From: Terriglobia bacterium
GTDB taxonomy: Bacteria; Acidobacteriota; Terriglobia; JAJPHL01; JAPKYU01
Length of the DNA: 64,000 bases
NCBI GenBank assembly: GCA_965218055.1
Contig: CBDCKA010000001.1
Location: 840,953-904,952 of the forward strand
Direction of reading: 5' to 3'
The position numbers were made by a program, and so were the translations under genes. The notes beneath the pieces were generated by a model that worked only from the letters and a program-made list of their open reading frames with translations, was not told where the DNA came from and did not search any database. Shown here one piece after another: positions 36,179-62,261 of the stretch (position 1 is its first letter; each line of letters begins with the position of its first letter).

Positions 36179-36203
36179 GCGCGTTTGCGGCGCTGGATCA
36201 TAG

Positions 36204-36554
<351 letters not shown>

Positions 36555-36815
36555 CGCTTTTTAACTGTTCTGCGGACAGCCTCAAATCGGCAGCGCTGCT
36601 TTTTGACCGCTGCGCTGGGGCGGCCCTGTGCCCGATGCCCGTGTTTTGTTTCTAGCTCTACTTTCCACACTGGCATAATTGCATAATTATTCCTCATAAT
36701 AGGAAAACCTAATCACGCCGATTCAAAAAACCGTCTTGCTTCGCGCTCCAATTATTCCGTAACGTTAGAGATGACAAACACAAGAGTCGTCACATGAACA
36801 TTAAGGAGACTGACA

Positions 36816-37580
36816 ATGGCAAAACTTTTGGTCCTGGTTTTGGTGGTGCTGGGGACGGTCCCCGCTGCCTGGGCTGGCGAACCAGCTGAGGCTGTGAGCG
36901 AAGCGCCAGCAGAGGACGAAAAGCCTTGGAGTCTGTCTTTCGACAGCACGTTCGTAAACAAGTATATCTGGCGCGGCCAAAACCTGAACAACAACGCGTC
37001 GTTCCAACCCGGAATGTCGTTCAGTTACAAGAACCTCACGATATCTTCGTGGAGTCAATTCTCGCACACGAGCTTTGGCGATAGCGGTGTGGCCGGTAAC
37101 CACTGGACCGAGCATGACCTCACTGTTGACTACGGCTTTGCGCTCAGCGAAAAGTTGTCTTTGAACGTGGGCTGGATTAATTATGCGTTTCCGAACCTGG
37201 GAGAGGACCGCTACACGAACGAGTTCTACGCCGGCATCAGCGCCGACACGATTCTCCAGCCGAGCTTCAGCATCTACGGTGACCCGCATCAGGGCGAAGG
37301 CCTCTACTACAACCTCGGCATCGGTCATGGCCTGGACCTGGGCAACGGCTTCGGTCTCAGCTTGTCAGCTGCGGCCGGTCTGAACCAGGGCCAGTGGATC
37401 GACATCACGACGGTTTCCGATGTTGTGCTCGGGGTCGGCCTAGACATTCCGGTCAGCGATAACGTCACATTGTCCCCGTTCTGGAACTACATCACGGGCA
37501 ATGACAGCCTGAGAAGGGGGCCGGACGGGTTCTTCTTCAGCGGTCACCTTGCAGGGGCGAATCTGAACATCAGTTACTAA
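36816..37580 (+). CDS. predicted outer-membrane beta-barrel protein (copy 1), genetically linked to PII/AmtB
   Basis: 254 aa. Signal peptide MAKLLVLVLVVLGTVPAAWA. Alternating amphipathic beta-strands ending in an aromatic residue (..ANLNISY). 80-90% identical to 39685..40443. Confidence 0.7.
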   Translation: MAKLLVLVLVVLGTVPAAWAGEPAEAVSEAPAEDEKPWSLSFDSTFVNKYIWRGQNLNNNASFQPGMSFSYKNLTISSWSQFSHTSFGDSGVAGNHWTEHDLTVDYGFALSEKLSLNVGWINYAFPNLGEDRYTNEFYAGISADTILQPSFSIYGDPHQGEGLYYNLGIGHGLDLGNGFGLSLSAAAGLNQGQWIDITTVSDVVLGVGLDIPVSDNVTLSPFWNYITGNDSLRRGPDGFFFSGHLAGANLNISY

Positions 37581-37584
37581 TCCC

Positions 37585-37691: not shown

Positions 37692-39038
37692 ATGAAGAAA
37701 CGAATTGCAACTCTTCCGCTTTGGGTGGCCGTCGCTGCTCCGGCGCTGCTGGGACAGGAGGCGCCCGATATGGCCCAGCTCCAGGCAGAGATAGCCGCTG
37801 CTCAGTCGGCCGGCGACAACGCCTGGATGTTGGTGTGTTGCGCCCTGGTGCTGATGATGACCGGGCCTGGCCTGCTGTTGTTCTACGGCGGCCTAGTGCG
37901 CAGGAAGAACGTGCTGGGCACCATGATGCAGTGCTTCATTCTCATGGCGGTGATCAGCGTGCTCTGGGCCGTGGTCGGCTACAGTCTTGCCTTCGCGGAA
38001 GGAAACGTGTTTGTGGGCGGCTTGGATCATGTGTTTCTCCGTGGCGTGGGCATGGAACCCAGCGGCTACGCCGGCACCATTCCTCATTACACCTTCATGT
38101 TGTTTCAGCTCATGTTTGCGATCATCACTCCGGCGCTGATCACCGGGGCCTTCGCCGAGCGCATGAAGTTCAGCGCCATGCTGCTGTTCATGGTGCTCTG
38201 GTCGCTGGTTGTCTACGCCCCGCTGGCTCACATGGTGTGGGGCAGTGGCGGGCTGCTGGGCTGGGGAGGGACGATCCCGGCGTTCGACTTTGCCGGCGGG
38301 ACGGTGGTCCACATCTCTTCCGGCGTTTCGGCGCTGGTCTGCGCGCTGTACCTGAAGGGCCGGCTGGGCTACGGGAAGGTGCCGATGCCGCCGCACAGCG
38401 TGGTGTTGAGTATCATCGGCGCTTGCCTGCTGTGGGTGGGCTGGTTCGGATTCAACGCGGGCAGCGCGCTGAACGCCGGAGGCTTGAGTGCGAGCGCCTT
38501 TGCCGCAACGCACTTCGCCACCGCCGCCGCCGTCCTGGGCTGGGTGCTTGCCGAATGGTTGCGCAACGGCAAGCCCGGCGTGTTGGGCGCCATTACCGGG
38601 GCCGTAGCCGGCCTGGTGGCGATCACCCCGGCCGCCGGCTTCGTGACCCCCATGGCAGCCATCTTTATTGGCTTCAGCGCCGGGGTGATCTGCTACCTGT
38701 TTGTCGGAATTCTCAAGCACCGCCTGGGCTACGATGACTCGCTGGACGCCTTCGGCGTGCACGGCGTTGGCGGCACGCTCGGCGCCCTGCTCACCGGGGT
38801 GTTCGCCACCACGGCTGTCAATGCCGACCTGCCACATGGCGGCCTGGTGGACGGCAACCCCGCCCAGATTCTCAACCAGGCCGGCGCCGTGCTGATCACC
38901 TGGGCGTTGGCAGCCGTCGGAACCTTGATTCTGCTCAAGGTGGTGGACCTGCTGATAGGAGTCCGTGTCTCGGAAGCGGATGAAGTGCAGGGTTTGGATA
39001 TTACCCAGCACGGCGAGCAGGGCTACGTCATGGAATAA
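37692..39038 (+). CDS. amtB: ammonium transporter
   Basis: 448 aa. Signal peptide plus 11 TM helices. Amt/MEP motifs (DFAGGTVVH, FGFNAGSAL). Confidence 0.95.
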   Translation: MKKRIATLPLWVAVAAPALLGQEAPDMAQLQAEIAAAQSAGDNAWMLVCCALVLMMTGPGLLLFYGGLVRRKNVLGTMMQCFILMAVISVLWAVVGYSLAFAEGNVFVGGLDHVFLRGVGMEPSGYAGTIPHYTFMLFQLMFAIITPALITGAFAERMKFSAMLLFMVLWSLVVYAPLAHMVWGSGGLLGWGGTIPAFDFAGGTVVHISSGVSALVCALYLKGRLGYGKVPMPPHSVVLSIIGACLLWVGWFGFNAGSALNAGGLSASAFAATHFATAAAVLGWVLAEWLRNGKPGVLGAITGAVAGLVAITPAAGFVTPMAAIFIGFSAGVICYLFVGILKHRLGYDDSLDAFGVHGVGGTLGALLTGVFATTAVNADLPHGGLVDGNPAQILNQAGAVLITWALAAVGTLILLKVVDLLIGVRVSEADEVQGLDITQHGEQGYVME

Positions 39039-39089
39039 ACCTATGCGCCGGCCGGCACTCAAGGGGGCTAAGCCGGCGCTGCATCGTAG

Positions 39090-39440
<351 letters not shown>

Positions 39441-39684
39441 CGCTTTTTAACTGTCCTGCCGCCAAACGTTAGGGTAACGCTCTGAATAGACTTCGTTCCG
39501 CGCCCGAAGCCCGTGTTTTCTATTTAGCTACCTCCAAAAACGCAGGTAATATGGTATTTTCTGGTCATAATAGCAACGCCTGGTCCCATAATTAACAGGA
39601 CACTATTACTTTTACACCACTTTTTACTTAATATTGGAGATTTCGCACAAAGGCTCTATCTAATGAGGTTGGAGGAGAAGAGTT

Positions 39685-40443
39685 ATGAAGCTGATCCCTT
39701 GGGTCATGGCATTGGTGGCCATTACAGTCACTGTGAGCGCCGCAGATTTGCTGGGGCAAGACGCCACACCGGCGCAGGCCGACAAACCCTGGAGCCTGTC
39801 CTTCGACGCCACGTTCGTAAATAAGTATATCTGGCGCGGCCAAAACCTGAACAACAACGCATCCCTCCAGCCCGGACTGGCTTTCACTTACAAGAACCTC
39901 ACGGTTTCTTCGTGGAGTCAATTCTCGCATACAGGCTTCGGCGATAGCGGCGTGGCCGGCAACCACTGGACCGAGCATGACTTCACTGTTGACTACGGCT
40001 TTGCGCTCAGCGAGAAGATCTCTGTGAACGTAGGCTGGATTAATTACGCGTTTCCGAATTTGCAGGATGGCCGCTACACCAACGAGTTCTACGGGGGCAT
40101 CAGCGCCGACACGATTCTCCAGCCGAGCTTCAGCATCTACGTTGACCCGCATCAGGGAGACGGCGTCTACTACAACCTCGGCATCGGTCATGGTCTGGAC
40201 CTGGGCAAAGGCTTTGGTCTCGGTTTGTCAGCTTCGGCTGGCCTGAACCAGGGCCAGTGGATCGACATCACGACGGTTTCCGATGTGGTGCTCGGGGTCA
40301 GCCTAGACGTTCCGGTCAGCGACAACGTCACGTTGTCCCCGTTCTGGAACTACATTACGGGCAATGATAGCCTGAGGACGGGACCGGACGCGTTCTACTT
40401 CAGCGGCCACATCGCGGGGGTGAATCTGAACATCAGCCACTAA
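39685..40443 (+). CDS. predicted outer-membrane beta-barrel protein (copy 2)
   Basis: 252 aa. Signal peptide MKLIPWVMALVAITVTVSA. Paralogue of 36816..37580. Preceded by an AT-rich 245-bp spacer. Confidence 0.7.
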   Translation: MKLIPWVMALVAITVTVSAADLLGQDATPAQADKPWSLSFDATFVNKYIWRGQNLNNNASLQPGLAFTYKNLTVSSWSQFSHTGFGDSGVAGNHWTEHDFTVDYGFALSEKISVNVGWINYAFPNLQDGRYTNEFYGGISADTILQPSFSIYVDPHQGDGVYYNLGIGHGLDLGKGFGLGLSASAGLNQGQWIDITTVSDVVLGVSLDVPVSDNVTLSPFWNYITGNDSLRTGPDAFYFSGHIAGVNLNISH

Positions 40444-40844
40444 TCTCCTCCACTGTATTTCTCCTCCACCGCATAGATCAACATGATCCTGGCCGGCCTG
40501 ATCTTAACCTTCTCTTCGCCCCGTTAGGCGGCCGCACAGTGGCCGACTGTGGCGGTGACATCCTCAGGTTGGTGCTGGCCGCTGAGCTGAAAGCAGCCCA
40601 CACGAACGGGGTTGCCTGCCGACCCAGAGACGGCTGGACGCGCGTTTGCAGACCTGTATCCCACCATTGCCTCCCCGCTTGATTCCTGCAAAGCGTGGGA
40701 TAGTGTAAGATAAGATTGGCTTTTTGTGAGCCAACTCCAGCTGGTGCAGGTCTGCCAGCAGCGCGGACGCAGTGCGAATTATGCCTTCGCTTGCTTTGCG
40801 GCCATGGAAGGACAGGTAGTCGAACTCTAGGGAAACACCGTCTC

Positions 40845-43243
40845 ATGTCCACAGAACTAACCCGACCGCAAAGAGCCACGGAACTGGGCCGACCGCTAGG
40901 AGAGGAGGAGCTTGCCGACGAAGCACTCACCCAGGCACTGTCTCATGCACACGCCCAGAAGACCGATGTGCTGGACCTTCTGGTGGTGGAAAAGAAGTTC
41001 AGCGAGGAGGCGGTGGCCGAAGTCCTTTGCCCGGCGGATGCGGCTGCCCCGGGTCAATCTGGCAGCCACCGTTCCGGAACCGGATGCCATCAAGCTGGTG
41101 CCGGAAGGGATGGCCCGCAGGCACCAAGTCGTGCCCCTGAAACTGGAAAACCGCTCCCTGGTGGTGGCTATGGCCAACCCCGCCAACATGGACGCCCAGC
41201 GTGACATCGAGTTCTCCACCGGAAAGACCCTGAAGATCCTGGTGGCGACCCGCACGGAAATCGTGGACGCGCTGGAGAAGACCTTCGCGACGGGCGAAAT
41301 GCTCAAGGACTTCCTGGAAAATATCAGCGACGTCCACAATTTCGAGCTGGTGGAAGAAAGCAAGGCCGAGGAGGTCGATCTGAAGGATTCTTTGGGCGGA
41401 GCGGAGTTGCCACCGGTGGTGAAGATGGTGAACCTGGTGGTGTACGACGCCATCCGCAATCGGGGCAGCGATATCCACCTTGAGCCGACGGTCAATGATC
41501 TGAAGGTCCGGGTGCGGATCGACGGCGTGATGCGCGAGTTTATGCAGCTTCCCAAGTGGGTGTGCCAGCCTGTGGTCTCGCGCATCAAGATACTGGCAAA
41601 ACTGGACATCGCCGAACGGCGCGTGCCCCAGGACGGCCGCCTGAAGGTGGCCATCGAGGGGCGGAACGTGGACATGCGCGTCTCCACCTTGCCCACCCAC
41701 CTGGGAGAGAAAGTGGTGATGCGCATCCTGGGTTCGGGGCAGGTCCCCAAGATGACTGAGCTAGGCTTTGAATCCGAGGATTTGGAAGCAATCCTGGGAG
41801 CGACGCAGAATCCCCAGGGTATGCTGCTGGTGACCGGCCCCACCGGCAGCGGCAAGACAACCAGCCTCTACTCGTTGTTGAATCATCGCAAGAGCCCGGA
41901 AGTAAACATCATCACTGTAGAAGATCCGGTGGAGTACCAGTTACCGGGGATCAACCAAGTTCAGATCAATCCCAAGGCCGGGTTGACCTTCCCTGCCTGC
42001 CTGCGCTCTAGCCTGCGCCAAGACCCGGACATCATTTTGGTGGGGGAAATCCGAGACCAGGAAACGGCCGAAGTGGCCTTCCACGCCTCAATGACCGGCC
42101 ACCTGGTGCTCTCCACCCTGCACACCAACAGCGCGCCGGCCACCCTCAGCCGCCTGCTGGACCTGGGTGTGGACCCGTTTGTAGTGGGTTCCACGGTGAT
42201 CCTGGTGATGGCCCAGCGACTGGCGCGGGAGGTGTGCCCACACTGCAAAGTAAATTACTCTCCGCCCGAGATGGTGCTGAAGCGTCTGAACCTGCCTGCC
42301 GACGAGGTGTACTTTCGCGGCGCCGGGTGTCCTCAGTGTAGTTTTTCCGGTTTCTCCGGCCGAACTGGCATCTACGAGGTGCTACAGGTGAACCCGGCCG
42401 TGCGCGAGCTATTAACCGAAAAGCGCCGGAAGCGGAAATCCGCAAGGTGGCCGTTCGTAGCGGAGGATTTTCCAGCCTGCTCCAGAAAGGGCTGGCCAAG
42501 GTGAGAGCAGGTTTGACCACGCCGGACGAACTGCTGCGGATCCTTCAGGTCGAAGAAGAGGAGGTAGCCGCCTGTCCAAATTGCCGTGCCCAAATCGACC
42601 CGGATTTCACCGTCTGCCCTTATTGCAGCCGGTCTCTAAAGTCCGTCTGCCGCGAGTGCCGGCAGCAGCTCCGTCCTAAGTGGACAATCTGTCCATATTG
42701 CGGCACTCCCGCTGAGGAGTCAGAAGCGGCGGCCGGGGGGCGGATGCCTTCCTTGGCGGACACAACGGGCTCGGCCATGCCGACTCGTCAGAATCACCCT
42801 CCGACCGCACCGGCCCCCGCCTCGTCCGAGGTCACAGCGGACCGGGCTCAGGCACCTGCTGGCTCCCCTGAGACAACCGCTTCTCCGGGGAAGACACCGG
42901 AAGCCGCTTTCGTTCCGCCCCGTTCCACCAAGCCCCCCAAGCAGGTGAAGATCCTGGTAGTGGACGACGATCCCTCCATCTAGATTGTCCTGCGCAAGAG
43001 CTTGGAGCAACTGCCGTTGCCCTCTGAGATCTTCACTGCCTCCAGTGGAGGAAGTACAGCCGGACCTGATTCTGTTGGACGTGATGATGCCTGAGGTCGA
43101 CGGCTTTACCGTGTGCCAAAAGCTGCGGGAAAACGTGCGCACCACCTTTATCCCCATCATCATGCTCACCGCGAATCCGGATGAAGAAAATCGCACTAAG
43201 GGCTTTCTCGTGGGCACAGACGACTACATGAATAAGCCGTTCC
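40845..43243 (+). pseudogene. GspE/PilB-like secretion ATPase fused to a double zinc ribbon and a receiver (REC) domain; disrupted by 2 frameshifts, 1 in-frame TAG and a 3'-truncating deletion
   Basis: T2SSE_N domain MSTELT...EEAVAEVL then a +1 shift (extra T near 41016-41018) into ARRMRLPRVNLAAT... Walker A GPTGSGKTT and tetracysteine CPHC...CPQC are present. A -1 shift near 42423 (aag|cgcc) restores ...EIRKVAVRSGGFSSLLQKGLAKVRAGLTTPDELLRILQ. That frame runs on without a stop into CPNC..CPYC / CREC..CPYC, a Pro/Ala linker, and KILVVDDDPSI-TAG(42981)-IVLRKSL...DLILLDVMMPEVDGF...YMNKPF. Confidence 0.7.
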
Positions 43244-43244
43244 C

Positions 43245-44100
43245 AGTTTGTCCGGCGGGATACCCGGCCCGTAGTTGCGGACGGAGAAACGCACCCGGCG
43301 ATCGATCTCACAGACTGCGGCTTCCACCGCCGTACCAGCCGGCGCATATTTGATGGCGTTGGAAAGTAGGTTCGTCAGGACTTGTTCCATCCGGTCGCGG
43401 TCCGCCATAACGGGCGACACCGCGCCGGACGGCAAAACCACCAGGTGGATAGAGACCCCCTCTGCATAGGTCCGCAGGCCGTTCATGGCGCGGCGGAGCA
43501 GTTCGAGGGGCTCCAGCAGTTCCAGGTTCAGCTCGGTCTTGCCGGCTTCGATCTTGGAAATATCCAGGATGTCGTTGATCAGCCGGTCCACTGCCGACTG
43601 CCCGATCTCCAGCAACTCTCGCACCGAATCGGTAATTGGTCCAGCGTAGCACCCAGCAACAGATCCAGCGACCCCTTGATCGAGGTCATTGGGGTCCGCA
43701 GCTCATGGGAAGCCACCGAGATGAACTCGTTCTTCATCTCGTCGACTTCCTTAGCCTGAGTGACATCGTTCAACGAGCAGACGTAACCGATCAGGCCGCC
43801 CTCAGGATTGTAGATCGACGCGGTGGTCTGCTCAATGTAGCGGAAATCCGGGCGATGCCACTCATAGACCATCTTGCTGGCAGTTTCCGGGTTGCAGGCG
43901 AGCCGCACTAGTTGTTGTCGCATTCGATCTTCTGGCTCAACCAAGTTCTCCAGCAGGCTGGGAGGAAGGCAGATATGCCTGCCGAGCACAGCGGCCGGGG
44001 AAAGACCGGTCATCTCGCCGATCTTGCGGTTGATCCACACCATCCGCCACTGCGCGTCGCACACGACGACCCCGCTGGGAAGGTTTTCTAGGGCCGTAAA
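43245..44100 (-). pseudogene. PAS-domain sensor histidine kinase, frameshifted and 3'-truncated
   Basis: ORF 43579..44064 gives PAS plus H-box [24 protein letters not shown] frame break near 43600-43630 leads into ORF 43196..43624 (MRELLEIG...DILDISKIEAGK...N-box LLSNAIKYAPAG...G1 box). It ends after GIPPDKL, abutting the truncated receiver on the other strand. Confidence 0.6.
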
Positions 44101-44137
44101 TAGGTTTCCGGTGATAGTTTTCTGTCGGGATCACCTG

Positions 44138-44525
44138 TTATTTCTCTCTGCCCGCGTCTTTCAGAATCTGCCGAATTTGGGCGGTCAGTTGGATGGGGTC
44201 AAACGGTTTGACCAGATAGCCGACCGCGCCGAGCGCCAGCCCTTTCCGAATCTCGGTTTCCTGTGCTTTGGCCGTGAGAAAGATGACAGGGATGTGGCGG
44301 GTGGCCGGATCGGCCTTGAGGCGACGGCAGGTTTCGTAGCCATCCATACGCGGCATCATGGCGTCCAACAAAATCACGTCGGGCCGTTCAGTGCTCACTT
44401 TCTTCAGACACTCCTGGCCGTTGCTGGCCACCACTACTTCCCAATGGCCCTGGAACTGGAAGGCTCATGCGCGCAACTTTCTGAATATCCTCCTCATCTT
44501 CCGCGAGCAACACCTTGTGAATTTC
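44138..44525 (-). pseudogene. CheY-like single-domain response regulator with frameshift
   Basis: MEIHKVLLAEDEEDIQKVARMSL is in one frame. ...VVASNGQECLKKVSTERPDVILLDAMMPRMDGYETCRRLK...VGYLVKPF is in another. Break near 44455-44470. Confidence 0.6.
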
Positions 44526-44536
44526 CATAGGTCGTG

Positions 44537-45937
44537 TCAAGACCCTTCGGTCTCGGGCTGGCGACCGAGGATCGACCGCGCTATCTCCACCAGGGCACGC
44601 GCATCAATGGGCTTGCTGACGAATTTCTCCGCGCCCATGGCCATAGCCTGGCCCGGGTCCTCCACGACCGACATGCGAATCACCGGAATGCTCCGGGTGC
44701 GATCGTTTTGTTTGAGCAGGTGGAGCAATTCAAAGCCACTCATGTCGGGCATGAGTAAATCCAGAGCAATGAGGGCAGGCTGATGGCATTCTGCTATTTT
44801 CCACCGCTTCCTCGCCTCGGTCGACGGCCCAGGCCCGGTAGCTGTTTGCTATTGAAAATGCCGCACATTGCCCGGGCCACGTCCTGGTTGTCGGTTCACC
44901 ACCAGGACGAGGGGAAGAGGCTGCTGCTCGGGGTGCGCCGGGGGCTGTCGCCCCAAGCGTGGCCGCCAACTCTGGCTCAGTGCAGGCCGGGGAGTGTAAA
45001 GAAAAACGTGGAACCCTGCCCGACTCTCGTGTCGAACCAAGATGCGGTCGCCGTGCCGTTCGATAATCGCCCGGGCAATCGCCAACCCCAGGCCCGAACC
45101 CTGGTGCTCCCGGGTCAAAGTATCCTCTGCCTGGGAAAATTTGCTGAAAATTCGCTTTTGAGCCTGCCGAGGAATACCTTTACCCTGGTCGCGCACCGAC
45201 ACCTCCACAAACGGGGCGCCATTCTGCATCACGCGGCGAGCTGCAACGGAGACGGTGGCCCCGCGAGGAGAATACTTGATGGCATTGGAAAACAATGAGC
45301 TGAGAGCTTGTTCCAGGCGCTCCCGATCAGCGTTGGCTGGAGGCAGGTCGGGCTCAATTGGGGCTTCTAGCGCCACATTTTTCTTCTCCGCACTCGCCGA
45401 ATGGCTGTTGAGCTCGTGCTGGATACTCTCCGCCACGGAAATGGGCTCCACGCACAAGGGTAGGCGGCGGGTTTCCAGCTTGAACATGTCCAGAATGCTG
45501 TTAGTTAGCGAGACGAGCCGGTCCGTATTCTTTCCCGCCAGTTCCAGTAGTTCTCGCAATTCGGGAGCCAGCGAACCCGCCGCCCCACCCAGCGCAAGTC
45601 CCAGCCGAACCTTTGATGGCCGTCAGCGGTGTCCGCACGGCACGCTTGGTCGGCTTCCAGCTCGGGGGGACTTTGGACCTGGACCACAGGCATCAAATAA
45701 ACGCGCAAGCTTCCCAGTGCACCGGCCAGCGGGAAAACCAATTCCGCCGTCAACGGGAGTCGTTTGCCGTATAGCAGCCAATTGTTTTTGAAACGCCTCT
45801 GAATCGTGGACGTAGTTTTTGAAAAGGCCAGCAATCTGAGGAAGTTCCAGCTGTTTTAGTTCCTCCGGGTCCAGCTGCGCCAGGTTGGCAGCCCGCTCGT
45901 TCGCCATAGCCTCCATTCTGGACTGCGTCATCTTCAT
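44537..45937 (-). pseudogene. hybrid histidine kinase (HisKA + HATPase + C-terminal REC), at least 5 frameshifts
   Basis: Receiver pieces are spread over three frames within 44750-44880 (LVLVVNDNQDVARAMCGIF / YRAWAVDRGEEAVE / KIAECHQPALIALDLLMPDMSGFELL...). The HATPase is intact (GSGLGLAIARAIIERHG). The H-box ...RTPLTAIKGS is in a different frame from ...LAPELRELLELAGKN (break near 45575-45600). The N-terminal part 45623..45937 is also split across frames. Confidence 0.55.
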
Positions 45938-46529
45938 GGATGCCAGAGGCCGGGTGGTGATAGGGACTTATGGTGCTGAGCTTCCTGGCCTTCGGGGGGG
46001 TTCTGGCCTTGTGGATTCACCTCATTCATGGGAACCCGCCATTTGTTCTCAAAAAGACCAGCCCCGGCCGAAGCCAGCCCCGGAGTTGCAAACCGTTGCT
46101 GATCATACGCAGTGTTCATCGGGAAACAAATTACTGGTGCCGGTTGCGCAGGCACGGCAGCGAGCACCTCGGGCACCCCAACACTGTAGCGGTCTGTTCT
46201 GCATGGCAGGGTTTGCCTCTGGAGCACCGGCATTCCACCAACGCCGCGCTGCTTTAGAGCGATGCCCGGGGCGCGACGGCCCGTCCTCGGCTATTCATCT
46301 TGTCCAGGAGCGGACGACGCGCGCAAGCAGCAGTGCACCAAAGGCAAGTGCGGCCAGTAGGGCGGGCGAGACGGCCGCCAGCACCAGCAGGTCGCGATCC
46401 AGGATCAGCCGATGAGAAACGTGCAGCGAGCTGGCAATCAACAGGACACCCATGGCGAAATAGAGTGAGCGTAACACCTAGGTTGCCATTTTTCCGCCTG
46501 AGCCCATAAGTGGTCAACCAACGCCGAAC

Positions 46530-49317: not shown

Positions 49318-49640
49318 CGTACAAGCCTACCAGACTGTACGCTCTACAAGACAGGCAGGAAAAATGAGCACAGGCTTACCAGCCTATGCTCTCCAGGGGG
49401 CAGGCAGGAATGCCTACCCTACCTTTTGAAAAGGAAAAAAAGGGAGCCTCATCTGGATGAGGCTCCCCTGTAGTTTCCGGCTTGGCGTTCAGGCGCACAC
49501 ACGCCGTCAGGCAGGAAGCGAGTACAGGCCTTGCGGCCTGTACTCTACGCCTAAGCGCAATCGAAGGAGATGGAAACTGAGCACAGGCCTTAGCGGCCTG
49601 TGCTCTCTACAACCCAGGCAGGAATGCCTGCCGCTATGCT
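49318..49640. repeat. cluster of REP-like palindromic repeat units (hairpin + CAGGCAGGAATGCC box)
   Basis: Hairpins: cgtacaAGCCTACCAGACtgtacg (49318-41), gagcacaggcTTACCAgcctatgctc (49366-91), gagtacaggccTTGCggcctgtactc (49520-45), gagcacaggccTTAGCggcctgtgctc (49579-605). Each is followed by ctctacaa(g/c)NcaggcaggaA(atgcct...). Confidence 0.6.
49425..49470 (-). terminator. intrinsic terminator of the 49640..51094 transcript
   Basis: In transcript orientation: GGGGAGCCTCATCcagATGAGGCTCCC followed by TTTTTTTCCTTTT. A 12-bp GC-rich stem plus U-run. Confidence 0.7.
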
Positions 49641-51094
49641 TAGTCCTCCAAGTCGATGGCCAGGTAGCCCTGCGCCGCCGTGGGGCCGCTCATCGTACCG
49701 AAGCCGTTGGAGATGAAGGCGAAGCCGTGGCCGTTTTCAAAGTCACAGTCCACGTCGAGAAAACCCTGGAAGCCCATAGCGATCCCCGACAACACGTAAG
49801 TCTCGCTGCCCCAGGACGGGACCTCCTTCGTCTCCATATCGGCGGGATTGGCCTCCGCACCATAGAACTTGATCGTGCAAGTTCCGCCATAGTTGGAAGC
49901 GTTCGTGAAGGCGATCCCGGTGTCAAAGCCTCCCGCGTTGGTCACGAACGGAAAGCGCATGCTCGTCTCACAGGGATCGAATCCGATGACCCGCACGGCA
50001 GCGGCATCAGCGAACTGCGGATTACCCTCGCTAGCACTGACGAAGCCCACGCTCACCATGCCGTCGGCGATCACGGTGTCTTCCTCCCACGTGAAGCTCA
50101 CCATCAACGTATTGCTCTGCGTCATATCTCCGGCGTCAGAGACATTGTAAGTGACCGAGCCGTCGCCGTCGTCGTCCAGGGTAACTGGAATCATACCATT
50201 GGCCGCTGTCGCGGTTGATGTAGTGGTCAGCGTGACTTTCATGGGATCGGTAGTGCTATCGGTAACCGACACATCGTTGTTGGCTATGTTTGTGATCATC
50301 ACGGTCACGCCGTCCGGGATGCCGGCGAATTTCACCCTTACTACGCCATAGTCAGCACTGTCAGATTGGTCGGTGAGCGCCGTAGCAAAGCCTTCCGTGA
50401 TCGTTATGGTAGCCATTCCCATTTCCATGGTTTCGCACTGCAGGACGTTGGCATCGTCCACCTTGACGGCCAGTCCGGTTTTGACCTTCGAGACATCGAA
50501 CGCCCCCGGCGACACGGACTGCGTGTTCACAGTGAGTTGGGCGGATATCTCTCCGTCGTCTCCCACCATGTAGGCGTTGGCTCGGATGCCGGCGATGATC
50601 ACATTGAAACCGTTGTCGCCAACTCCCAAGCCGAGACTTGCGCCGCTGAGTTTCTCCCACACGACCGTGTTCGGGTCCTCATCGGCATCAATCATCGGAC
50701 CTGCATCACCGGCGGCAGGGTCAAACACGGTTTCGCTTATAGCAGTGCCGCCCGTAGTCCCATCACTGTTCAACTCAGCAGCGTCATAGCTCAGGTCAGC
50801 CAGGCTGGTGATTGGAGTGTTCAGCGTAATGCTTAATGTGAAATCGGTTATTGCAAACAGCGAGCCGGTGTCCTCTGAAGGCACGCACCGCAACTCGATG
50901 CCGCCGATCTGTTCGGTCATGCCCTCGGCCCGCACCGTGGCCACTGCATCGTCGCCCGTAGCAGCCCGCGCCTCGCACCGTTGCGCCTGGGCCACGCTGC
51001 TGCTCAGCACGATGGCCGCCAGCAGGGACAGCATGACGATGCTGTTTCTCAAGATCGCCTTTTGAACCCTCTTCATCGTTCTTCCTTTTTCCAT
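49640..51094 (-). CDS. secreted acidic Thr/Asp/Gly-rich protein of unrecognised family (candidate major surface / secreted protein)
   Basis: Within ORF 49640..51163. Start MEKGRTMKRVQKAILRNSIVMLSLLAAIVLSSSVAQA (signal peptide), GAGG 5 nt upstream. C-terminal 4-Cys module FDPCETSMRFPFVTNAGGFDTGIAFTNAS...CTIKFYG...CDFENGHGFAFI...AQGYLAI. Noticeably lower GC than the flanks. Confidence 0.8.
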   Translation of the reverse strand: MEKGRTMKRVQKAILRNSIVMLSLLAAIVLSSSVAQAQRCEARAATGDDAVATVRAEGMTEQIGGIELRCVPSEDTGSLFAITDFTLSITLNTPITSLADLSYDAAELNSDGTTGGTAISETVFDPAAGDAGPMIDADEDPNTVVWEKLSGASLGLGVGDNGFNVIIAGIRANAYMVGDDGEISAQLTVNTQSVSPGAFDVSKVKTGLAVKVDDANVLQCETMEMGMATITITEGFATALTDQSDSADYGVVRVKFAGIPDGVTVMITNIANNDVSVTDSTTDPMKVTLTTTSTATAANGMIPVTLDDDGDGSVTYNVSDAGDMTQSNTLMVSFTWEEDTVIADGMVSVGFVSASEGNPQFADAAAVRVIGFDPCETSMRFPFVTNAGGFDTGIAFTNASNYGGTCTIKFYGAEANPADMETKEVPSWGSETYVLSGIAMGFQGFLDVDCDFENGHGFAFISNGFGTMSGPTAAQGYLAIDLED

Positions 51095-51574
51095 CTCGCC
51101 TCTTCTCCTTCTTGATTTCAGAGTCAGAATTTTTGATTCCTGGATGACGTTATACCTCAACATGCTCCCCCGTCACGAGAGCTACTGAACAACACGCTCA
51201 CCACAACTTCGCCGCTCCGGGCGGCAAGCTCTGGCAAACCGTACACTCTCGCCGGAGATTGAAAGCCTCACACAGTTCACCTTGGACCCACCCGGGGTGA
51301 TGACGCATTTTTTGTATCAACTCCAGCTGTGCCGCGTCAACTGTTTTTTTACTTTCCTGTTTACTACCCCAAACGGCCAGAGGCGGGATGGCGCGCTCTC
51401 GCCCCGATCATCACTGCCAGTCCAAGCCGGTCCAAACGTTCCCTGCCGCCTTACATACAAAGCGGCCATCGTGAAATTAACAACTGGCAGGGGGTATGTC
51501 AAGATTTTTTTTCGAAATGTGCCAGGAAAAAACAGGCCACTAGGGGGGGCAAGGGGGCGGTAGGCAGTAGGCGG

Positions 51575-51904
51575 CTATCCGGGGAGAAATTTTTGCGGAT
51601 CGGCCATCATACGACCCAACATTCTGCCTAACTGTTCATACCCGGTGACGATGCGCCTATGCAGATCCTGCGATAAGTAGCCGCAATCACGGGCGAAGTC
51701 GAGCCACACTTGCGTTTCGGTTGCCTCCGCGTCGGCGTCAGCAAGCTTACTCACAAACATACTCGGATATTGCCGCTTTCTGAAGCCTTCGGCGAGGTTC
51801 GCGGCAACGCTGCGTGAGGAGCGGCGTATTTGATCGGTCAAGGAGAAACGCTCATCCCTGGGGAATACCTTAGCCGGAATTTCCATTTTGAGCTTCCCCT
51901 TCAC
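51575..51904 (-). CDS. four-helix-bundle protein (23S rRNA intervening-sequence protein / Avd family), possibly N-terminally truncated
   Basis: 109 aa. ...FPRDERFSLTDQIRRSSRSVAANLAEGFRKRQ...WLDFARDCGYL matches the PF05635 core. The usual N-terminal helix (about 30 aa) is absent; an in-frame stop lies immediately upstream. Confidence 0.75.
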   Translation of the reverse strand: MKGKLKMEIPAKVFPRDERFSLTDQIRRSSRSVAANLAEGFRKRQYPSMFVSKLADADAEATETQVWLDFARDCGYLSQDLHRRIVTGYEQLGRMLGRMMADPQKFLPG

Positions 51905-52049
51905 CCGAAAACCTATGCCTCGTACCCTGTCGTGTCAATCGCAAATCGCCCGGGCCTCTTTGAGGTGGTAGTGCGGCACATTTTGGCTGTTCTTCGGAGT
52001 CGCTGTGCGGGTTTCGCCTGCCCAGCCTGCCTCGCCGCTGACACTTGTC

Positions 52050-53600
52050 CGGCCCGACCACTTCTGAGCACCTAAAATTACCCTCTCTCCTGGGTCGCTA
52101 GCCGTCTGGCAGCGGCAGTGCCGAGATCGTTCGCAGCATGCTGCTGAACAGCCTCCGGCTCAAGTGCCCTTCGGCCAGCAAAAGCCAGTAATATCGTGCA
52201 TGTTTCACCAGCCGTCCGCCCGTTTTCACCAGCCGCTGCTGCAAACTCGTCAGCGACCAGTTGTTGATCCTCTTCGGTAGCACCAGCCGCCGCCACAGGT
52301 TTCCCAAGTTGTAGGCGATCAGGCTCAGCCATAGGCGCACCTCGTTCGACCGAAACCGATGGCAACTCAGCCGGGTCATCTTTACCGCCTGCTTGCCTTC
52401 CTTGATCCATTGCTCTGCGGTGCCCCGCTTGTTGTAGAACCGGACCACCGCCCGGCTGTCGGTCTCCAGATTGGTGACGATGAACCCCACGCGAGGGAAC
52501 AGTTCGCCAAAGTGGAACTCCACCTTCGCCACCACCCGCCGCGCCTTTTTCCAACTGGCTGCCTGGTAGAGAAAGCTCTTGTACCAGACCACCGGCTTGT
52601 GGCTCGGTCGCCCCACTGACCGCGTCAACAACTCCGCGATGTCCCTCTCCAGACTGTCGTTGGCCGGGATGCGAATCGCATACTTCACGTCCCGCTCCTC
52701 CAGTGCGTCGTAGATCTCCGGCTTGGCGAAGGCGGCGTCGGCGCGAAACACCGCTTCCTTGCCCAGCTTCTGCTGCCGTTCGATCTCTGGCAGGAGAAGT
52801 TCTTCCCAATCCTCGGCGCTGTGCACGTTGCCGGGTCGCAGCTTGGCCGCCAGACAGTCACCCTCGCGACTGAACAGCAACAACGGGTGATAGCAACTCG
52901 ACTCGAAATGCCCGTTGTAGGCGCTCTGTTCCTGCTCCCCGTAGACCGGGATCTCGGTGCTGTCCATGTCCAGCACCACCCGGCGCGGCGCATCCATAGC
53001 TTCCGCCCTGGCGATCAAATCCCGGTTGATCGCTGCCAAACCAGCAAGGTTCTCGTCTTGCGTCAGCAGTTCTGTCTCGAACGACTGTAACCGGGAAGTC
53101 AGGGCTGCGCCACGTTCCCAGATCTTCTCCGAACCGATCAGCCGGAACGTCGGATCTTGGGAAAGCCGCTCGGCGTCGTTGACGTCTTCGTATCCTGCCA
53201 AGCGGCTGTAGATGGACTGCCGCAGCAAGTCAGCGAGGGGCAACCGGGTGTTCTTCCCCCGAGAGTCGATCAAGTGCTGTTCGATAAGTTCGCCGAACCC
53301 CAAACGTTCGTCCAACTCGCGCACCAGAATCAGACCGCCGTCGGAAGTGATTCGCGATCCCTGAAATGTGACCCGCAGAAACCGGTTGAATGACAGTTGA
53401 AACGCCTGTTTTTGGCTCTCACCCATTCGGTGTACACCTCCGGAAGGCAATGTTGATGCTGGAACCCGCATCAATACTGACGTTGGAGTCATTCAGAAGG
53501 TTGCCGCCGATAGTTCATAAAGGAAATCCGGGCTTAGAATGCTGGAAGACCTCCATCGCTAGCTTGTACGCCAGTTGATAAGCTTTCAGATCCCGATGTC
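52050..53600 (-). mobile_element. IS1380-family insertion sequence (ends approximate)
   Basis: Single DDE transposase ORF with about 100-170 bp of flanking non-coding sequence. It sits between the Avd-like gene and the gspD 3' end. The terminal inverted repeats could not be defined confidently by eye. Confidence 0.55.
52098..53426 (-). CDS. IS1380-family DDE transposase
   Basis: Within ORF 52098..53492. Start MGESQKQAFQLSFNRFLRVTFQGSRITSDGGLILVRELDERLGF is the characteristic IS1380 transposase N-terminus. DDE region ...VVLDMDSTEIPVYGEQE... Confidence 0.85.
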   Translation of the reverse strand: MGESQKQAFQLSFNRFLRVTFQGSRITSDGGLILVRELDERLGFGELIEQHLIDSRGKNTRLPLADLLRQSIYSRLAGYEDVNDAERLSQDPTFRLIGSEKIWERGAALTSRLQSFETELLTQDENLAGLAAINRDLIARAEAMDAPRRVVLDMDSTEIPVYGEQEQSAYNGHFESSCYHPLLLFSREGDCLAAKLRPGNVHSAEDWEELLLPEIERQQKLGKEAVFRADAAFAKPEIYDALEERDVKYAIRIPANDSLERDIAELLTRSVGRPSHKPVVWYKSFLYQAASWKKARRVVAKVEFHFGELFPRVGFIVTNLETDSRAVVRFYNKRGTAEQWIKEGKQAVKMTRLSCHRFRSNEVRLWLSLIAYNLGNLWRRLVLPKRINNWSLTSLQQRLVKTGGRLVKHARYYWLLLAEGHLSRRLFSSMLRTISALPLPDG

Positions 53601-53664: not shown

Positions 53665-55941
53665 TTACTCGCTCTCCTGCCTGAGCGCCTTGCGCAATTC
53701 CTTCAATTTGTCGTGGAACTCCTTGGTGGCCATCTTGGCCTCGCCCATGTCCTTGATCACCCTGGGCGTGAGCAGGATGATCAGCTCGTTGCGGCTGGTG
53801 GAATCGCGGGTGGTGCCGAACAATAGCCCCAAGCCGGGAATGCGCCCTAACAGCGGCACTCGATTGGTGGAGACGATCCGGGTTTCCGAGATGATGCCGC
53901 CCAGGGCAATGGTCTCCCCGTCCTGCACCGTCACCTGAGTGGACACGGAACGCTTCTGGATCGAAGTCAGAGTGCCGCTGCTGGTCGGCAAGCTGACTTC
54001 CTGGTCGATACGCAACGTCACCAGCCCGCTGGGATTGATGCGCGGTGTCACCGACAGGATCACGCCGGTATCCCGCCGCTGGTAGGAACTGACAGGTGAG
54101 ATGGTCCCGAAGGCTACACCCTGCTGAGTCTGGATGGGAATCTCCTGTCCTACCTGGATGCGCGCCTCGGTGTTATTGCTGGCCAAAAGCGTGGGCGCGG
54201 AAAGCACCCGTGTGCGTCCCCGGTTCTCCTGGGCATTCAGGAACAGGAACAACTCGCGGCTGCGGCCTATCAAGGTGCCCACCGAAGCGCTCAGGCCGGC
54301 GTTAGGAAACGTCTCCGTCCCGAAAGCGCTGAATTGCCCAACGGGATTCCGGGAGGCGCTGCTGCGCCGCTGGAGGAACGCTTCGACCCCGAAGGACAGC
54401 GCCCCCGATAAGGTGACCTCGTACACCTTGGCTTCAATGAGCACCTGCCGGGGCGCCACGTCCAGCTCCTTCAGGGTCTCAAGGATGACTTCGTAGTCCT
54501 GCGGGGTAGCCTGGACGACCAGGGTATTGTTGATGGGGTCCGGAACAATGCGCGCCGGACTCTGCAACATTCCACCCGGCACAGCAGCTATGAAGATTTG
54601 CCTGGAACCCCGGTACATAGAACCCCGCGATGTTTGGCCCACCCCGCCGACAGGAAACGACACACCTCCGGGCGTCATTCCTCCACCAGCCGATCCCATC
54701 CCGCCGGGCGGTATCATCCCCGGCGCCGCCATCCCTGGCGCTGTCATCCCGGGCGCCGACGCTCCTGTTGCCTCCGCACCCATCATCGGCCGAGCTGCTC
54801 CGTAAAGGCCCGCCAATACGAAAGCCAACTCCCCCGCCGCCCTGTTTTCCACCTTGTAGGCAAAGTTCTGCAGTCCCCCACGGCGCACGGGCTTGTCCAG
54901 CTTCTCAATCCACTGCTGCACTTCCGAGTACACCTCGGAATTCGGAGTCGCCACCAGGATGGAGTTGATTCGCTCCAGTGCAATAAACCGCACCGCCGAG
55001 CCTTCCTTCGAGAGGGCATACGCCTTGAAGATTTCCTCCAGGTCCTTGACCAGGCTGCTGGCCTGGCTGTTCTCGATGGCAAACAACCGGACCCGCTGCT
55101 GCTCCAGCGCCGAGGTGTCAAACAGGTTCACCATCTCCATTAGCCGCTTCAGGCTGCGGCTGGTGTCGGTGATGAGCAGGATGTTGCCCGGCTCGTGGGT
55201 CACGATGTGGCCCGCTTCCGACAGGTAGCTGCTCAGGATTTTCGACATATCCGCGGCGGTGACGAAGCTGAGGGCGACCACGTTCATCACCATGCGGTCA
55301 TCAGGCGGCAGGCTGGCTCCAGTGGGATCCTGGGTGAGCGGTAGCGGAACACGCGGCGCTCCCTTCAGGGGCACGATCCGCCAGAAGCTGCCGCTCTGGA
55401 CGGCCGAGGCCCCGTTGGCCCGCAGGATGGCCTGCAGCAGGGGCAGCAGGTCCTCATGACTCAGGTTGCCCAGGGTGTTGATGTTCACCACACCCTTCAC
55501 CCCAGGGTCCACGACATAGTTCATCTTGAGTTCGGCGGCAATGATCCCAATCACCTGAAGCAGGTTGGCATTCTCCAGGTGGAGGCTGATGCGCGCCCCA
55601 GCTCGCGTCTTCTCCGTTGCCGGTGCCGCTTCCGCCTCCTGCGCGGGAGGCTCTGCCGATGGCTGGTCTTGAGGCTGGGCAGTCGGTTGTTGCGGTTCCT
55701 GAGCCTGAGGCTCTGTCGGTTCCCCCTGCGCTGGCGGCTGGACCGATTGCTCGGTTTGAGACTGCGCAGGTGGTTGCGCGGGTTCCTGGACCGGCGCGGC
55801 CTTCCTCGGAGTGCTGCCTGCGGCGACCGTCGACATCAGCCCCCAAGCTGCTAAAACTAGGACGGCGCTACCCAGTTGGCCTCTCAGTACACCGGATGTG
55901 AAATTCTGCATCCTCTTCATGGTTCGTTTTATTCGGCTCAT
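53665..55941 (-). CDS. gspD: type II secretion system secretin GspD
   Basis: Within ORF 53665..56007. Start MSRIKRTMKRMQNF. Signal peptide, Pro/Gln-rich linker, N0-N3 domains, and secretin domain ...GETIALGGIISETRIVSTNRVPLLGRIPGLGLLFGTTRDSTSRNELIILLTPRVI. Confidence 0.9.
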   Translation of the reverse strand: MSRIKRTMKRMQNFTSGVLRGQLGSAVLVLAAWGLMSTVAAGSTPRKAAPVQEPAQPPAQSQTEQSVQPPAQGEPTEPQAQEPQQPTAQPQDQPSAEPPAQEAEAAPATEKTRAGARISLHLENANLLQVIGIIAAELKMNYVVDPGVKGVVNINTLGNLSHEDLLPLLQAILRANGASAVQSGSFWRIVPLKGAPRVPLPLTQDPTGASLPPDDRMVMNVVALSFVTAADMSKILSSYLSEAGHIVTHEPGNILLITDTSRSLKRLMEMVNLFDTSALEQQRVRLFAIENSQASSLVKDLEEIFKAYALSKEGSAVRFIALERINSILVATPNSEVYSEVQQWIEKLDKPVRRGGLQNFAYKVENRAAGELAFVLAGLYGAARPMMGAEATGASAPGMTAPGMAAPGMIPPGGMGSAGGGMTPGGVSFPVGGVGQTSRGSMYRGSRQIFIAAVPGGMLQSPARIVPDPINNTLVVQATPQDYEVILETLKELDVAPRQVLIEAKVYEVTLSGALSFGVEAFLQRRSSASRNPVGQFSAFGTETFPNAGLSASVGTLIGRSRELFLFLNAQENRGRTRVLSAPTLLASNNTEARIQVGQEIPIQTQQGVAFGTISPVSSYQRRDTGVILSVTPRINPSGLVTLRIDQEVSLPTSSGTLTSIQKRSVSTQVTVQDGETIALGGIISETRIVSTNRVPLLGRIPGLGLLFGTTRDSTSRNELIILLTPRVIKDMGEAKMATKEFHDKLKELRKALRQESE

Positions 55942-55954
55942 CTCAGATTCTGCC

Positions 55955-56752
55955 TCATTGGGTTTTCTGCGCCGCCGGGAGATCCTCATACCAGGTCTGT
56001 ACGCCAAATGGCGTTACCCGGTCGTATCTCTTCCGGTTACCTTCGACGGTGACGGTTAAATAGCGATCCCCGGTGGGGGAGCCGGTCGCTGGGGCGACAG
56101 CGGGAGCGGTGGCGGCTCCTGGGGTGGGTGTAGACGCCGGCCCTGCAGAAGAAGCTGAAGGGGCAGCCGGAACAGCGGTCAACACCTGGTCGGCCGCGGT
56201 GCCGGCCGGGCGGGCGGGCCGGACTGCGGCCCGCCCGGCGGCCTGGCGCACGTTTTCGGCTGATTCGTAGACATCAATGGTGGTCTTCTGGCCCTCGAAT
56301 TCGATAATCACCTGGTGCTCGGCGATTTCCGCCACGCGATAGCCACCGATTTCATCGCCCACCTTGAGCCGGCGGAATGTGGCCTGCCTGGCCTGTTGCG
56401 GCTCGGCCATCAGGGCCACCGGACCGCTGCCGAGGTTCACGGTTCCAATCACCAAGGGGACCGGCGGCCGGACCTTGGATACGCTTGCCAACGCCTGGTC
56501 GTTGTTGCGGTCGGGGCTGAACAGGTTGCGGGTAAGCAGCACGGAGTGGCTGTCCGGGACAGCCGCCAGTCCAGCTTCAGGCATGCCTGCTTTGGACACA
56601 CCTGCCCAGGGGGTGGCTGCTGAGGTCACAAACTGCTTGTAGCGGGCATGATTGCTCTGCCAGGTATCGTGGATGGCGGCAGCAACCCACACCGCCAGCG
56701 TCAAGAGGGCCAGGTTAAGATAGGTTATCGGTTTGCGCATGCTTTCTCTCAC
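55955..56752 (-). CDS. T2SS accessory protein (GspC/GspN/PilP-like), single N-terminal TM
   Basis: 265 aa. TM helix ITYLNLALLTLAVWVAAAI, then a periplasmic domain and an Ala/Pro-rich tail. Located between the gspM-like gene and gspD. Confidence 0.5.
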   Translation of the reverse strand: MRESMRKPITYLNLALLTLAVWVAAAIHDTWQSNHARYKQFVTSAATPWAGVSKAGMPEAGLAAVPDSHSVLLTRNLFSPDRNNDQALASVSKVRPPVPLVIGTVNLGSGPVALMAEPQQARQATFRRLKVGDEIGGYRVAEIAEHQVIIEFEGQKTTIDVYESAENVRQAAGRAAVRPARPAGTAADQVLTAVPAAPSASSAGPASTPTPGAATAPAVAPATGSPTGDRYLTVTVEGNRKRYDRVTPFGVQTWYEDLPAAQKTQ

Positions 56753-57411
56753 GATTTGGGAGTTGGCGCGGGCTCGGCGAACATCAGCCCACGAATCACC
56801 ATTCGCACCGTCACCATCTTTTGTGGCTTTTGTGGTTTTTGTGTCCGACCGGGACGCGAGGGCAACGCCCTAATGGAGAGCTGATCCAGCGCCAGTACCT
56901 TGCGACTGGCGTGGGCAGCCAGCAGAAAACTCGTGAGCTGGTCCAGCCTGCATTGGAACGACAACGACAAGGGCACGACGTTATAGCTCGCCCCGGCGAC
57001 CTTGAGAACCCGCACCGGCCGGAAGGCGGCGTTGCGCATTTCCATGCCCTGCTTCGCCATCAGTTGCTTGATCACTTCCTGCAACTCGGCCGCAGCCAGG
57101 GCCGACGTGCTGCTGCTCAGCAGGCCTTTCTCGGCTTCAGCCAGACGAGCCTGCATTTCCTGAAACTCCTTTTTCTGATCTGCGGCCAGGGCTACAAGTC
57201 GCCGGTATTTGCGCAGGGTCTTCTCCTTCAGTGGCAGCGAGGCACGGAGCTTCTCGGCGGGGTCCATGACGGGCAAGACAAGCAAATCCAGCAGCAGGAA
57301 CAGAGCAGTGGCAGCTGCCAGCAAGAGCAGAGCCCGCTGGTCTCGAGCGCTCAAAGAACGCAAGAAAGACGCAGCTGTCGCTGGCTCCCTCTTCCTGCCT
57401 CCGTTAGTCAT
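56749..57411 (-). CDS. gspM: T2SS protein GspM-like
   Basis: 220 aa. One TM helix (ALLLLAAATALFLLLDLLVL) plus a coiled coil. Overlaps the gspL stop. Confidence 0.6.
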   Translation of the reverse strand: MTNGGRKREPATAASFLRSLSARDQRALLLLAAATALFLLLDLLVLPVMDPAEKLRASLPLKEKTLRKYRRLVALAADQKKEFQEMQARLAEAEKGLLSSSTSALAAAELQEVIKQLMAKQGMEMRNAAFRPVRVLKVAGASYNVVPLSLSFQCRLDQLTSFLLAAHASRKVLALDQLSIRALPSRPGRTQKPQKPQKMVTVRMVIRGLMFAEPAPTPKS

Positions 57412-58939: not shown

Positions 58940-58982
58940 TTCCGATACGCTCGCTTCTTCAAGTCCTCGTTCATAGCCCAGT

Positions 58983-60029: not shown

Positions 60030-60031
60030 TT

Positions 60032-60754: not shown

Positions 60755-61202
60755 ATTTACAGGTCTCGAACGTGGCGCGTTGCTCTCCGCTGGCGCCTTT
60801 CCAGAACACCGTCAGGGTCACCAGCACCAGGGGCGTCAGCGCCGCTTGTCGTTCGCCGGCGGCTGCACCGGCAGGATTCCAGCGCCGAATTTCCGCCTCC
60901 CAGCGAAACGTTTCATCCCACCGGCCAGCAACCCGGCCGGGCACTAGCGTCTGCTCTATGAGCAAACGGTTCAATTGCGAGCGACCCACCAGTGTCGCTT
61001 TCTCGTAAGTTTCCGTGCGCGCCAGGTTGCGCAGCGAGCCGGAAAGCCCGCTCATCAACGCAGCCACAGCAATGCCCAACAGCGCCATGGCCACCAACAC
61101 TTCCAGCAGCGTGAACCCATGGGTTGCAGGTTGCCGGAGTTGGAAGGAGGCTCTTCCCCCGCCGCTGCTTCCAACATCCCGAATCGCAAGTCCAACACCC
61201 AT
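60729..61202 (-). CDS. gspI: T2SS minor pseudopilin GspI
   Basis: Within ORF 60729..61214. Start at the second Met (TGATG overlap with the gspH stop). Prepilin motif ...THG|FTLLEVLVAMALLGIA, with an unusually long leader (about 29 aa). Confidence 0.65.
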   Translation of the reverse strand: MGVGLAIRDVGSSGGGRASFQLRQPATHGFTLLEVLVAMALLGIAVAALMSGLSGSLRNLARTETYEKATLVGRSQLNRLLIEQTLVPGRVAGRWDETFRWEAEIRRWNPAGAAAGERQAALTPLVLVTLTVFWKGASGEQRATFETCKYEPLLPAQ

Positions 61203-61681: not shown

Positions 61682-61715
61682 AATCGTCAATGATTCAATC
61701 CTCAATTCCCCACTC

Positions 61716-62213: not shown

Positions 62214-62261
62214 GCAATTGCTCCTCTGCGCCTCTGTGTGTCTAGTGTCCCTGTGGCTCTC

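Follow-up and report, generated by a model that had tools for sequence, protein, structure and literature searches.

The locus and its junction

Here, we describe a decayed signalling module in a 64,000-nucleotide stretch of DNA (the window) from a Terriglobia (Acidobacteriota) population and, in particular, the point between positions 43242 and 43243 where two of its genes, a receiver-bearing ATPase gene on the plus strand and a histidine kinase gene on the minus strand, meet head-on. The module comprises four genes between 40845 and 46029, all of which are dead as a result of frameshifts, a stop codon and further deletions. The genes on either side of it look intact, with an ammonium transporter gene and P-II genes upstream and a type II secretion cluster downstream. 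The four pseudogenes and the junction are as follows:

40845-43242, plus strand: MshEN-T2SSE (GspE/PilB-like) ATPase-double zinc ribbon-receiver pseudogene, assigned with Pfam; intact orthologues have 808-817 amino acids
43242-43243: deletion junction, blunt and without filler or microhomology, placed by blastn break points and base-level comparison of the flanks
43243-44134, minus strand: PAS-HisKA-HATPase_c histidine kinase pseudogene; intact form of 360 amino acids, with the last 59 codons and the stop codon gone
44138-44528, minus strand: single-domain response regulator pseudogene; intact form of 129 amino acids, with one base inserted at 44460
44537-46029, minus strand: hybrid histidine kinase pseudogene; intact form of 515 amino acids

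The receiver coding on the plus strand stops at 43242, after ...DDYMNKPF, with the phenylalanine codon at 43240-43242. The Response_reg match in the plus-strand open reading frame (ORF) at 42985-43353 (E = 3e-15) covers model positions 38-101 of 111, and the last residue in it, number 86, is the F in ...YMNKPF. On the opposite strand, the ATPase coding of the kinase stops after ...GPGIPPDKL, with the leucine codon at 43246-43244, and the HATPase_c match in the minus-strand ORF at 43196-43624 (E = 2.6e-11) covers model positions 2-55 of 111. Over 43230-43260 the window reads ...ATG AAT AAG CCG TTC / CCAGTTTGTCCGGCGGGAT..., where the slash marks the junction. The plus-strand ORF encodes ...LILLDVMMPEVDGFTVCQKLRENVRTTFIPIIMLTANPDEENRTKGFLVGTDDYMNKPF and the minus-strand ORF ...NLLSNAIKYAPAGTAVEAAVCEIDRRVRFSVRNYGPGIPPDKL, each followed by nonsense, namely the antisense of the opposite gene.

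These limits agree with the original prediction, made from the sequence of the window, that the receiver lacks its last helix and the kinase its G2 box and lid; to the latter we can add the F box. The prediction had also placed the two genes within 2 nucleotides of each other without terminators. The fit is in fact tighter, with zero bases between the truncated genes, and terminator-like matches in 42900-43600 number one weak hit against 0.6 expected by chance.

Relatives and the ancestral arrangement

To reach intact versions of the locus, we joined the kinase reading frames over the frameshift and searched with the resulting protein. Its ten closest homologues have 357-360 amino acids and a complete HATPase_c domain. 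Five syntenic relatives, with 75-95% nucleotide identity, were aligned across the junction:

L011: 92.6-94.7% identity; 35x coverage; 1.22-Mb contig
L005: approximately 90% identity
L006: 86-88% identity; 2.6-Mb contig
L007: 84-87% identity; 9x coverage
L008: approximately 75% identity; Terriglobia metagenome-assembled genome (MAG) GCA_040961615.1, contig JBFONE010000538.1

A genome scan with the ATPase gave three further loci, L001, L002 and L003, of which only L002 was useful. This distant Acidobacteria MAG carries an intact MshEN-T2SSE-zinc ribbon-receiver fusion of 829 amino acids (814 in L006) and shows the intact receiver end, ...DDYMGKPFAVPELHARVLRLLRRTYGI*. As comparators across the junction itself these three loci were rejected: L001 loses collinearity at window position 42435, short of the junction, and L002 and L003 are too distant downstream.

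In the relatives, the hybrid kinase (515-517 amino acids), the response regulator (129-132) and the PAS kinase (360) are read in one direction, and converge on a J-domain protein (257-276) preceded by the ATPase-zinc ribbon-receiver fusion (808-817). All genes of the module are full length in L008. Like the module of the window, that of L008 contains the hybrid kinase, the response regulator, the PAS kinase, the MshEN-T2SSE-zinc ribbon-receiver ATPase and a receiver-metallo-beta-lactamase, with the J-domain protein in the same six-gene neighbourhood; it differs from that of the window in having every gene full length.

In all five relatives, blastn homology on the left ends at 43242 and homology on the right starts at 43243 or 43244, with orientation unchanged, and the ancestral order and orientation are kept for more than 2 kb on either side. 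The DNA missing from the window between 43242 and 43243 amounts to 1,048 bp compared with L011, 1,052 bp compared with L005 and L006 and 1,051 bp compared with L007, and it was not found elsewhere in the 64-kb window. Base by base, the left flank in the relatives is ...AAGCCGTTC / AGCGTTCCC... and the right flank ...GACTCGGT / CCAGTTTGTCC..., and the window reads ...AAGCCGTTC / CCAGTTTGTCC... across the junction. The immediate flanks in the relatives, ...CCGTTC / AGCG... and ...TCGGT / CCAG..., leave 0 bp of microhomology.

The lost DNA has three parts. The first consists of the final 19 receiver codons (helix alpha-5, SVPELLARVxRLLRRTYGL) and the stop codon. The second is the entire J-domain (DnaJ-like) gene, 257-276 codons long in the relatives. 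The third is made up of the final 59 kinase codons, NLVFDKFQQLEGAKKGTGLGLAICRALVVEHGGDIWVRSEP..., which specify the F box FDKF, the G2 box GxGLGL, the lid and the last strands. The earlier proposal that a deletion had removed both 3' ends is thus correct, as the five relatives carry the missing DNA, and incomplete, as a whole J-domain gene went with them.

Since homology breaks off and restarts at one point, in the same orientation, in every relative, the junction is that of a simple deletion. We are highly confident that an ancestor of the population underwent one such deletion, of approximately 1,050 bp, and that the junction is its scar. The ancestral locus had two convergent units, the fusion gene followed by the J-domain gene on one side, and the hybrid kinase, response regulator and PAS kinase on the other. 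With the deletion went receiver helix alpha-5, the J-domain gene in its entirety and, from the kinase, the F box, G2 box and lid; the two stumps were fused head-on.

The junction in other assemblies

Searching for exact matches to the protein of a neighbouring gene and to those of the chimeric ORFs, we retrieved four more contigs with the identical junction (five with the window). They represent at least two additional samples and two assemblers, with coverages from 3x to 44x:

L004: ERZ25067264; 19x; junction present
L012: same sample as L004; 44x, 1.31-Mb contig; junction present
L009: ERZ25072670; 3x; junction present
L010: Logan k-mer contig made directly from the reads of run ERR13605531; junction present

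L004, L009 and L012 are metaMDBG-style contigs. The four are 99.4-99.9% identical to the window; in the case of L010, 3,031 bases align with three mismatches and no gap. No extra sequence lies at the junction in any assembly examined.

The contigs also differ from one another. In L004 and L012 the 48 bases at 44133-44180 are inverted, and the window alone carries an inserted base at 41020. At the 5' end of the dead kinase, the 44x haplotype (L012) alone has an IS5-family insertion sequence (IS) of about 1.3 kb with DDE_Tnp_1 and DUF772 ORFs (L012 8840-10144, corresponding to window 44088-44091), flanked by a 4-bp target duplication. Because they differ by single-nucleotide polymorphisms (SNPs), an IS insertion and a micro-inversion, the junction-bearing contigs represent separate haplotypes. 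The same junction across samples, haplotypes and two assemblers is therefore not an assembly or base-calling artefact, and the deletion is a property of the organism rather than of one assembly. Nearly all of the frameshifts in the tract recur in L004, L009, L010 and L012 along with the junction, which bears out the original argument that the decay is real.

Lesions in the four genes

The junction is one of approximately twenty disabling lesions in a module that is no longer under selection. In the ATPase pseudogene, these are a +1 at 41020, a -1 at 42407-9, a TAG codon at 42981-42983, a 23-bp deletion after 43044 and the 3' truncation at 43242. The receiver domain (PF00072) is incomplete; the VVDDD, LLDVMMP and MLTA motifs are recognisable and the KPF lysine of beta-5 is reached, but the frame is broken by the TAG codon and the 23-bp deletion, and helix alpha-5 is gone. 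At the 5' end of the same pseudogene, 40849-40875 is a 27-bp in-frame, partly diverged tandem duplication (STELTRPQRA/TELGRPLGE), which L006, L007 and L011 do not have.

The kinase pseudogene has a 9-bp deletion after 43579, a -1 at 43649-51, a 3-bp deletion after 44092, a +1 at 44118-21 and its own 3' truncation. Its set of HATPase_c (PF02518, GHKL fold) motifs is likewise incomplete: the N box NLLSNAIKY is present, the G1 box is present with its aspartate changed to asparagine (RNYGPGI versus RDYGPGI), and the F and G2 boxes are deleted. The hybrid kinase carries nine +1 insertions (at 45605, 45652 and 45755, and six in 44797-45040), a micro-inversion at 45907-45961 and a 66-bp deletion after 45637 that takes out the phospho-acceptor His box.

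Lineage-specific substitutions number 77 nonsynonymous to 70 synonymous on the window branch and 41 to 53 on the L011 branch. Both ratios lie between tight constraint and neutrality, and the intermediate value on the window branch is as expected if selection was lost part-way along it.

This history resembles the formation of pseudogenes by deletion, or deletional bias, in that syntenic intact orthologues, collinear flanks, a missing internal segment and lesions in neighbouring genes of the module are all present. Unlike the usual pseudogene deletions, a single event here truncates two convergent genes and removes a third, and the excess of single-base insertions over deletions in the tract (12 versus 2) runs opposite to the usual bias. 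The scar has no function and is an ordinary step in the decay of a gene cluster; the odd part is the mutational signature around it.

Single-base duplications and micro-inversions

All 12 single-base insertions duplicate the adjoining base, which in six of them was a lone base outside any run. The insertions that lie in runs may stem from polymerase slippage. Six of the duplications form a ladder in the dead hybrid kinase, and the micro-inversions lie on either side of it:

44133-44180: 48-base segment that keeps its ancestral orientation in the window; L004 and L012 have it inverted, with an extra base at each junction
44797-800, 44845-47, 44893-94, 44940-44, 44989-92 and 45039-40: six single-base duplications
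45907-45961: micro-inverted segment corresponding to 53 ancestral bases (L011 14600-14652); each junction has one extra base
46111-46158: micro-inversion in the region upstream of the hybrid kinase, approximately 46 bases long; net gain of two bases and a less clean fit to the same model

A period of 48.3 bp fits the ladder to within 1.3 bp at every site; the ancestral frame hops 2>0>1>2>0>1>2, about every 16 codons. A further pair of insertions, at 45605 and 45652, is spaced by 47 bp. All six ladder insertions are also present in L010; as this is a k-mer contig, the ladder is not a product of the long-read assembler, and an assembler artefact was ruled out as its source. Serial programmed ribosomal frameshifting at the six +1 sites was also rejected, as there is no common slippery motif, a stop codon follows the fourth site and the His box has been lost through the 66-bp deletion. 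A restriction or guide-directed nuclease would call for a motif common to the 12 insertion sites, and we found none; nor did we find CRISPR arrays in the window. For the remaining break points, a global lattice was not significant (R = 0.72, compared with a 95th percentile of 0.73 for random sets); the local ladder alone is significant.

Across all pairs of relatives over 33.5-55 kb, micro-inversions are confined to the window lineage and, within it, to the tract, and the one at 44133-44180 is polymorphic in the population. None of them has flanking inverted repeats. We modelled them by a cut, fill and flip scheme in which an ancestor L-x-S-y-R becomes L-x-y'-rc(S)-x'-y-R. For 44133-44180, the sequence predicted by the model agrees with L004 and L012 at 143 of 143 bases. 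For 45907-45961, the model leaves 6 mismatches in 143 bases, all of them background SNPs, compared with at least 37 for the best plain inversion. The micro-inversions thus fit two breaks with a 1-nucleotide stagger, fill-in and flipped re-ligation.

A model of staggered breaks, fill-in and end joining has been proposed for Drosophila inversions (Ranz et al. 2007, PMC1885836). The segments at 44133-44180 and 45907-45961 share its topology, and differ in scale and host: the duplication is 1 nucleotide here and 46 bp to 1.9 kb in Drosophila, and the inverted segment, here in a bacterium, is 46-53 bp. In Potapova et al. (2022, PMC8755829), micro-inversions of 17-33 nucleotides flanked by near-perfect inverted repeats are attributed to template switching or break-induced replication. 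Like the cases described there, the present inversions are short, in place and precisely copied; unlike them, they span 46-53 nucleotides, lack inverted repeats at their flanks and have one base added per junction.

Origin of the deletion

Because the junction is blunt and has no repeat, microhomology or mobile-element end, its most likely origin is a double-strand break whose ends were joined independently of homology, rather than repeat slippage or recombination. Two other deletions of the tract, of 66 bp and 23 bp, likewise show 0 bp of microhomology. A mark of bacterial Ku/LigD end joining is the templated filling of short 5' overhangs. No ku or ligD gene was seen in the 64-kb window or in the fetched loci of 3-21 kb, the extent covered.

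Replication slippage or template switching could have made the deletion instead, and we consider this unlikely while giving it some weight. Slippage does operate here, since the 9-bp deletion after 43579 is a clean loss of one CAGCCGGAT tandem-repeat unit. The 1,050-bp, 66-bp and 23-bp junctions, however, have no direct repeat or microhomology, and duplications of lone bases together with inversions that gain 1 nucleotide per junction are a better match for fill-in and end joining.

Taking end joining further, the deletion might, instead of stemming from ordinary slow decay, be one outcome of a localised and recurrent double-strand-break process with a 1-nucleotide 5' stagger, a spacing of approximately 47-48 bp, fill-in and blunt end joining. 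Under such a process, unflipped re-ligation would give a +1 duplication, flipped re-ligation a micro-inversion and loss of the fragment a blunt deletion. We put this forward as a speculative and rather doubtful proposal; we know of no bacterial nuclease, repair pathway or sequencing artefact that yields such a ruler.

Some points weigh against our reading of the junction as the scar of a single deletion healed by end joining. Chance alone would leave three junctions without any microhomology in approximately 18% of cases, which makes the argument for end joining weak by itself. Several successive deletions may give the same picture as a single step. The evidence for the junction consists of assembled contigs, apparently all from one project, to judge by their neighbouring European Nucleotide Archive accession numbers; independence is therefore among samples, haplotypes and two assemblers, and not among laboratories. 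Finally, a scan of Joint Genome Institute metagenome contigs with a 30-mer spanning the junction gave zero matches, and hence no confirmation there.

The remaining alternatives concern the nature of the junction rather than the way a deletion was repaired. It is very improbable that it is an inversion break point or was produced by a mobile element. The three micro-inversions in the tract and the active IS elements nearby (the IS5-family element in L012, an IS6/IS240-family element in L005 and DDE_Tnp_1_4 at 52098-53492) lend this idea some appeal, but no IS remnant, inverted repeat or target duplication was found at the junction, the missing segment is absent from the window, and the collinear flanks in five relatives exclude an inversion or transposition.

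Even less probable is a chimera or misjoin, in which an assembler wrongly fused two conserved two-component domains head-on. Receiver and kinase domains occur many times in such genomes, and contigs of the region can be odd: the MAG contig L001 breaks abruptly inside the same ATPase gene. A misjoin is contradicted by the identical junction in five contigs, at 3x to 44x and from two assemblers including a k-mer contig of the read set, by flanks with haplotype-specific SNPs and by the collinearity of both flanks with all of the relatives. That both genes are natural short variants normally ending here, without any deletion, is the least credible reading, as nothing favours it except that the ORFs run on for a few codons past the junction, and orthologues run past both points (the ten closest kinase homologues have a complete HATPase_c and the fusion-gene orthologues end ...KPFSVPELLARVxRLLRRTYGL*), the Pfam models are cut at 101/111 and 55/111, and both genes carry extra frameshifts, plus a stop.

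Parallel loss in sister lineages

The sister lineages have disabled the module independently. L011 keeps all of the DNA and has two nonsense mutations, GAA>TAA at ATPase codon 522 and GAG>TAG at kinase codon 137, just before the His box (L011 9989-9991 and 12361-12363). In L005, an IS240/IS6-family transposase (L005 10097-10792) replaces the ATPase, leaving a receiver stump of 106 amino acids. The ATPase and the kinase of L007 are both split in two, part of which, at 9x coverage, may be sequencing error. In L006, the J-domain gene is split (L006 9116-9892). A rearrangement in L001 (at 11515) ends collinearity in the ATPase gene at window position 42435/6, which is the codon that is TAA in L011. 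Given these independent losses, the module appears to be dispensable in this clade.

In itself, the scar is of minor importance. It gives a base-level record of a single deletion that put an end to three signalling-module genes in an uncultured soil acidobacterium. The frameshifts in the tract are confirmed as biological, and 40845-46029 should be annotated as four pseudogenes rather than as some ten short ORFs. The locus is also a natural example of the parallel loss of a regulatory module beside an intact type II secretion cluster. If breaking and rejoining did in fact produce the ladder and the micro-inversions, the tract would be one of few natural archives of end-joining outcomes from an environmental bacterium, and the agent responsible, measuring approximately 48 bp, would be one not previously known.

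Neighbouring genes

The type II secretion cluster on the minus strand (53665-64000) is apparently intact and includes a secretin of 780 amino acids (53665-56007) as well as T2SS-M, PilN/GspL-like and GspK-like genes. A second GspE-like gene runs off the end of the window, where L001 has a weak nucleotide match (63818-64000). As the cluster has this second GspE-like gene, the dead ATPase is a paralogue and not the cluster's own motor.

Between the module and the cluster, the window differs from L012 in two places. An insertion sequence at 52098-53492, with a DDE_Tnp_1_4 transposase of 464 amino acids, lies within a 1.66-kb stretch (51874-53532) that is absent from L012. In its place, L012 has a bAvd or 23S-rRNA-IVP-like gene adjoining the secretin gene. 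The other difference lies in an ORF of 507 amino acids without a Pfam match (49640-51163, minus strand), where 50100-50800 has 20-35 mismatches per 100 bp compared with L012 and the flanks are approximately 99.6% identical. This segment looks like an exchanged allele. We considered 50.1-50.8 kb as a second instance of the mutational signature and rejected it, as it is a substituted allele with ordinary indels instead.

Upstream of the module, 36188-37584 and 39010-40445 are paralogous, 89-96% identical copies of a P-II gene together with a gene for a signal-peptide protein of 252-254 amino acids, and they flank the ammonium transporter gene. The same duplication is present in L006 and L012. 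Further upstream, an ORF contains tandem 99-bp (33-codon) repeats at 7347-7920, the length of which suggests that they are of ankyrin type.

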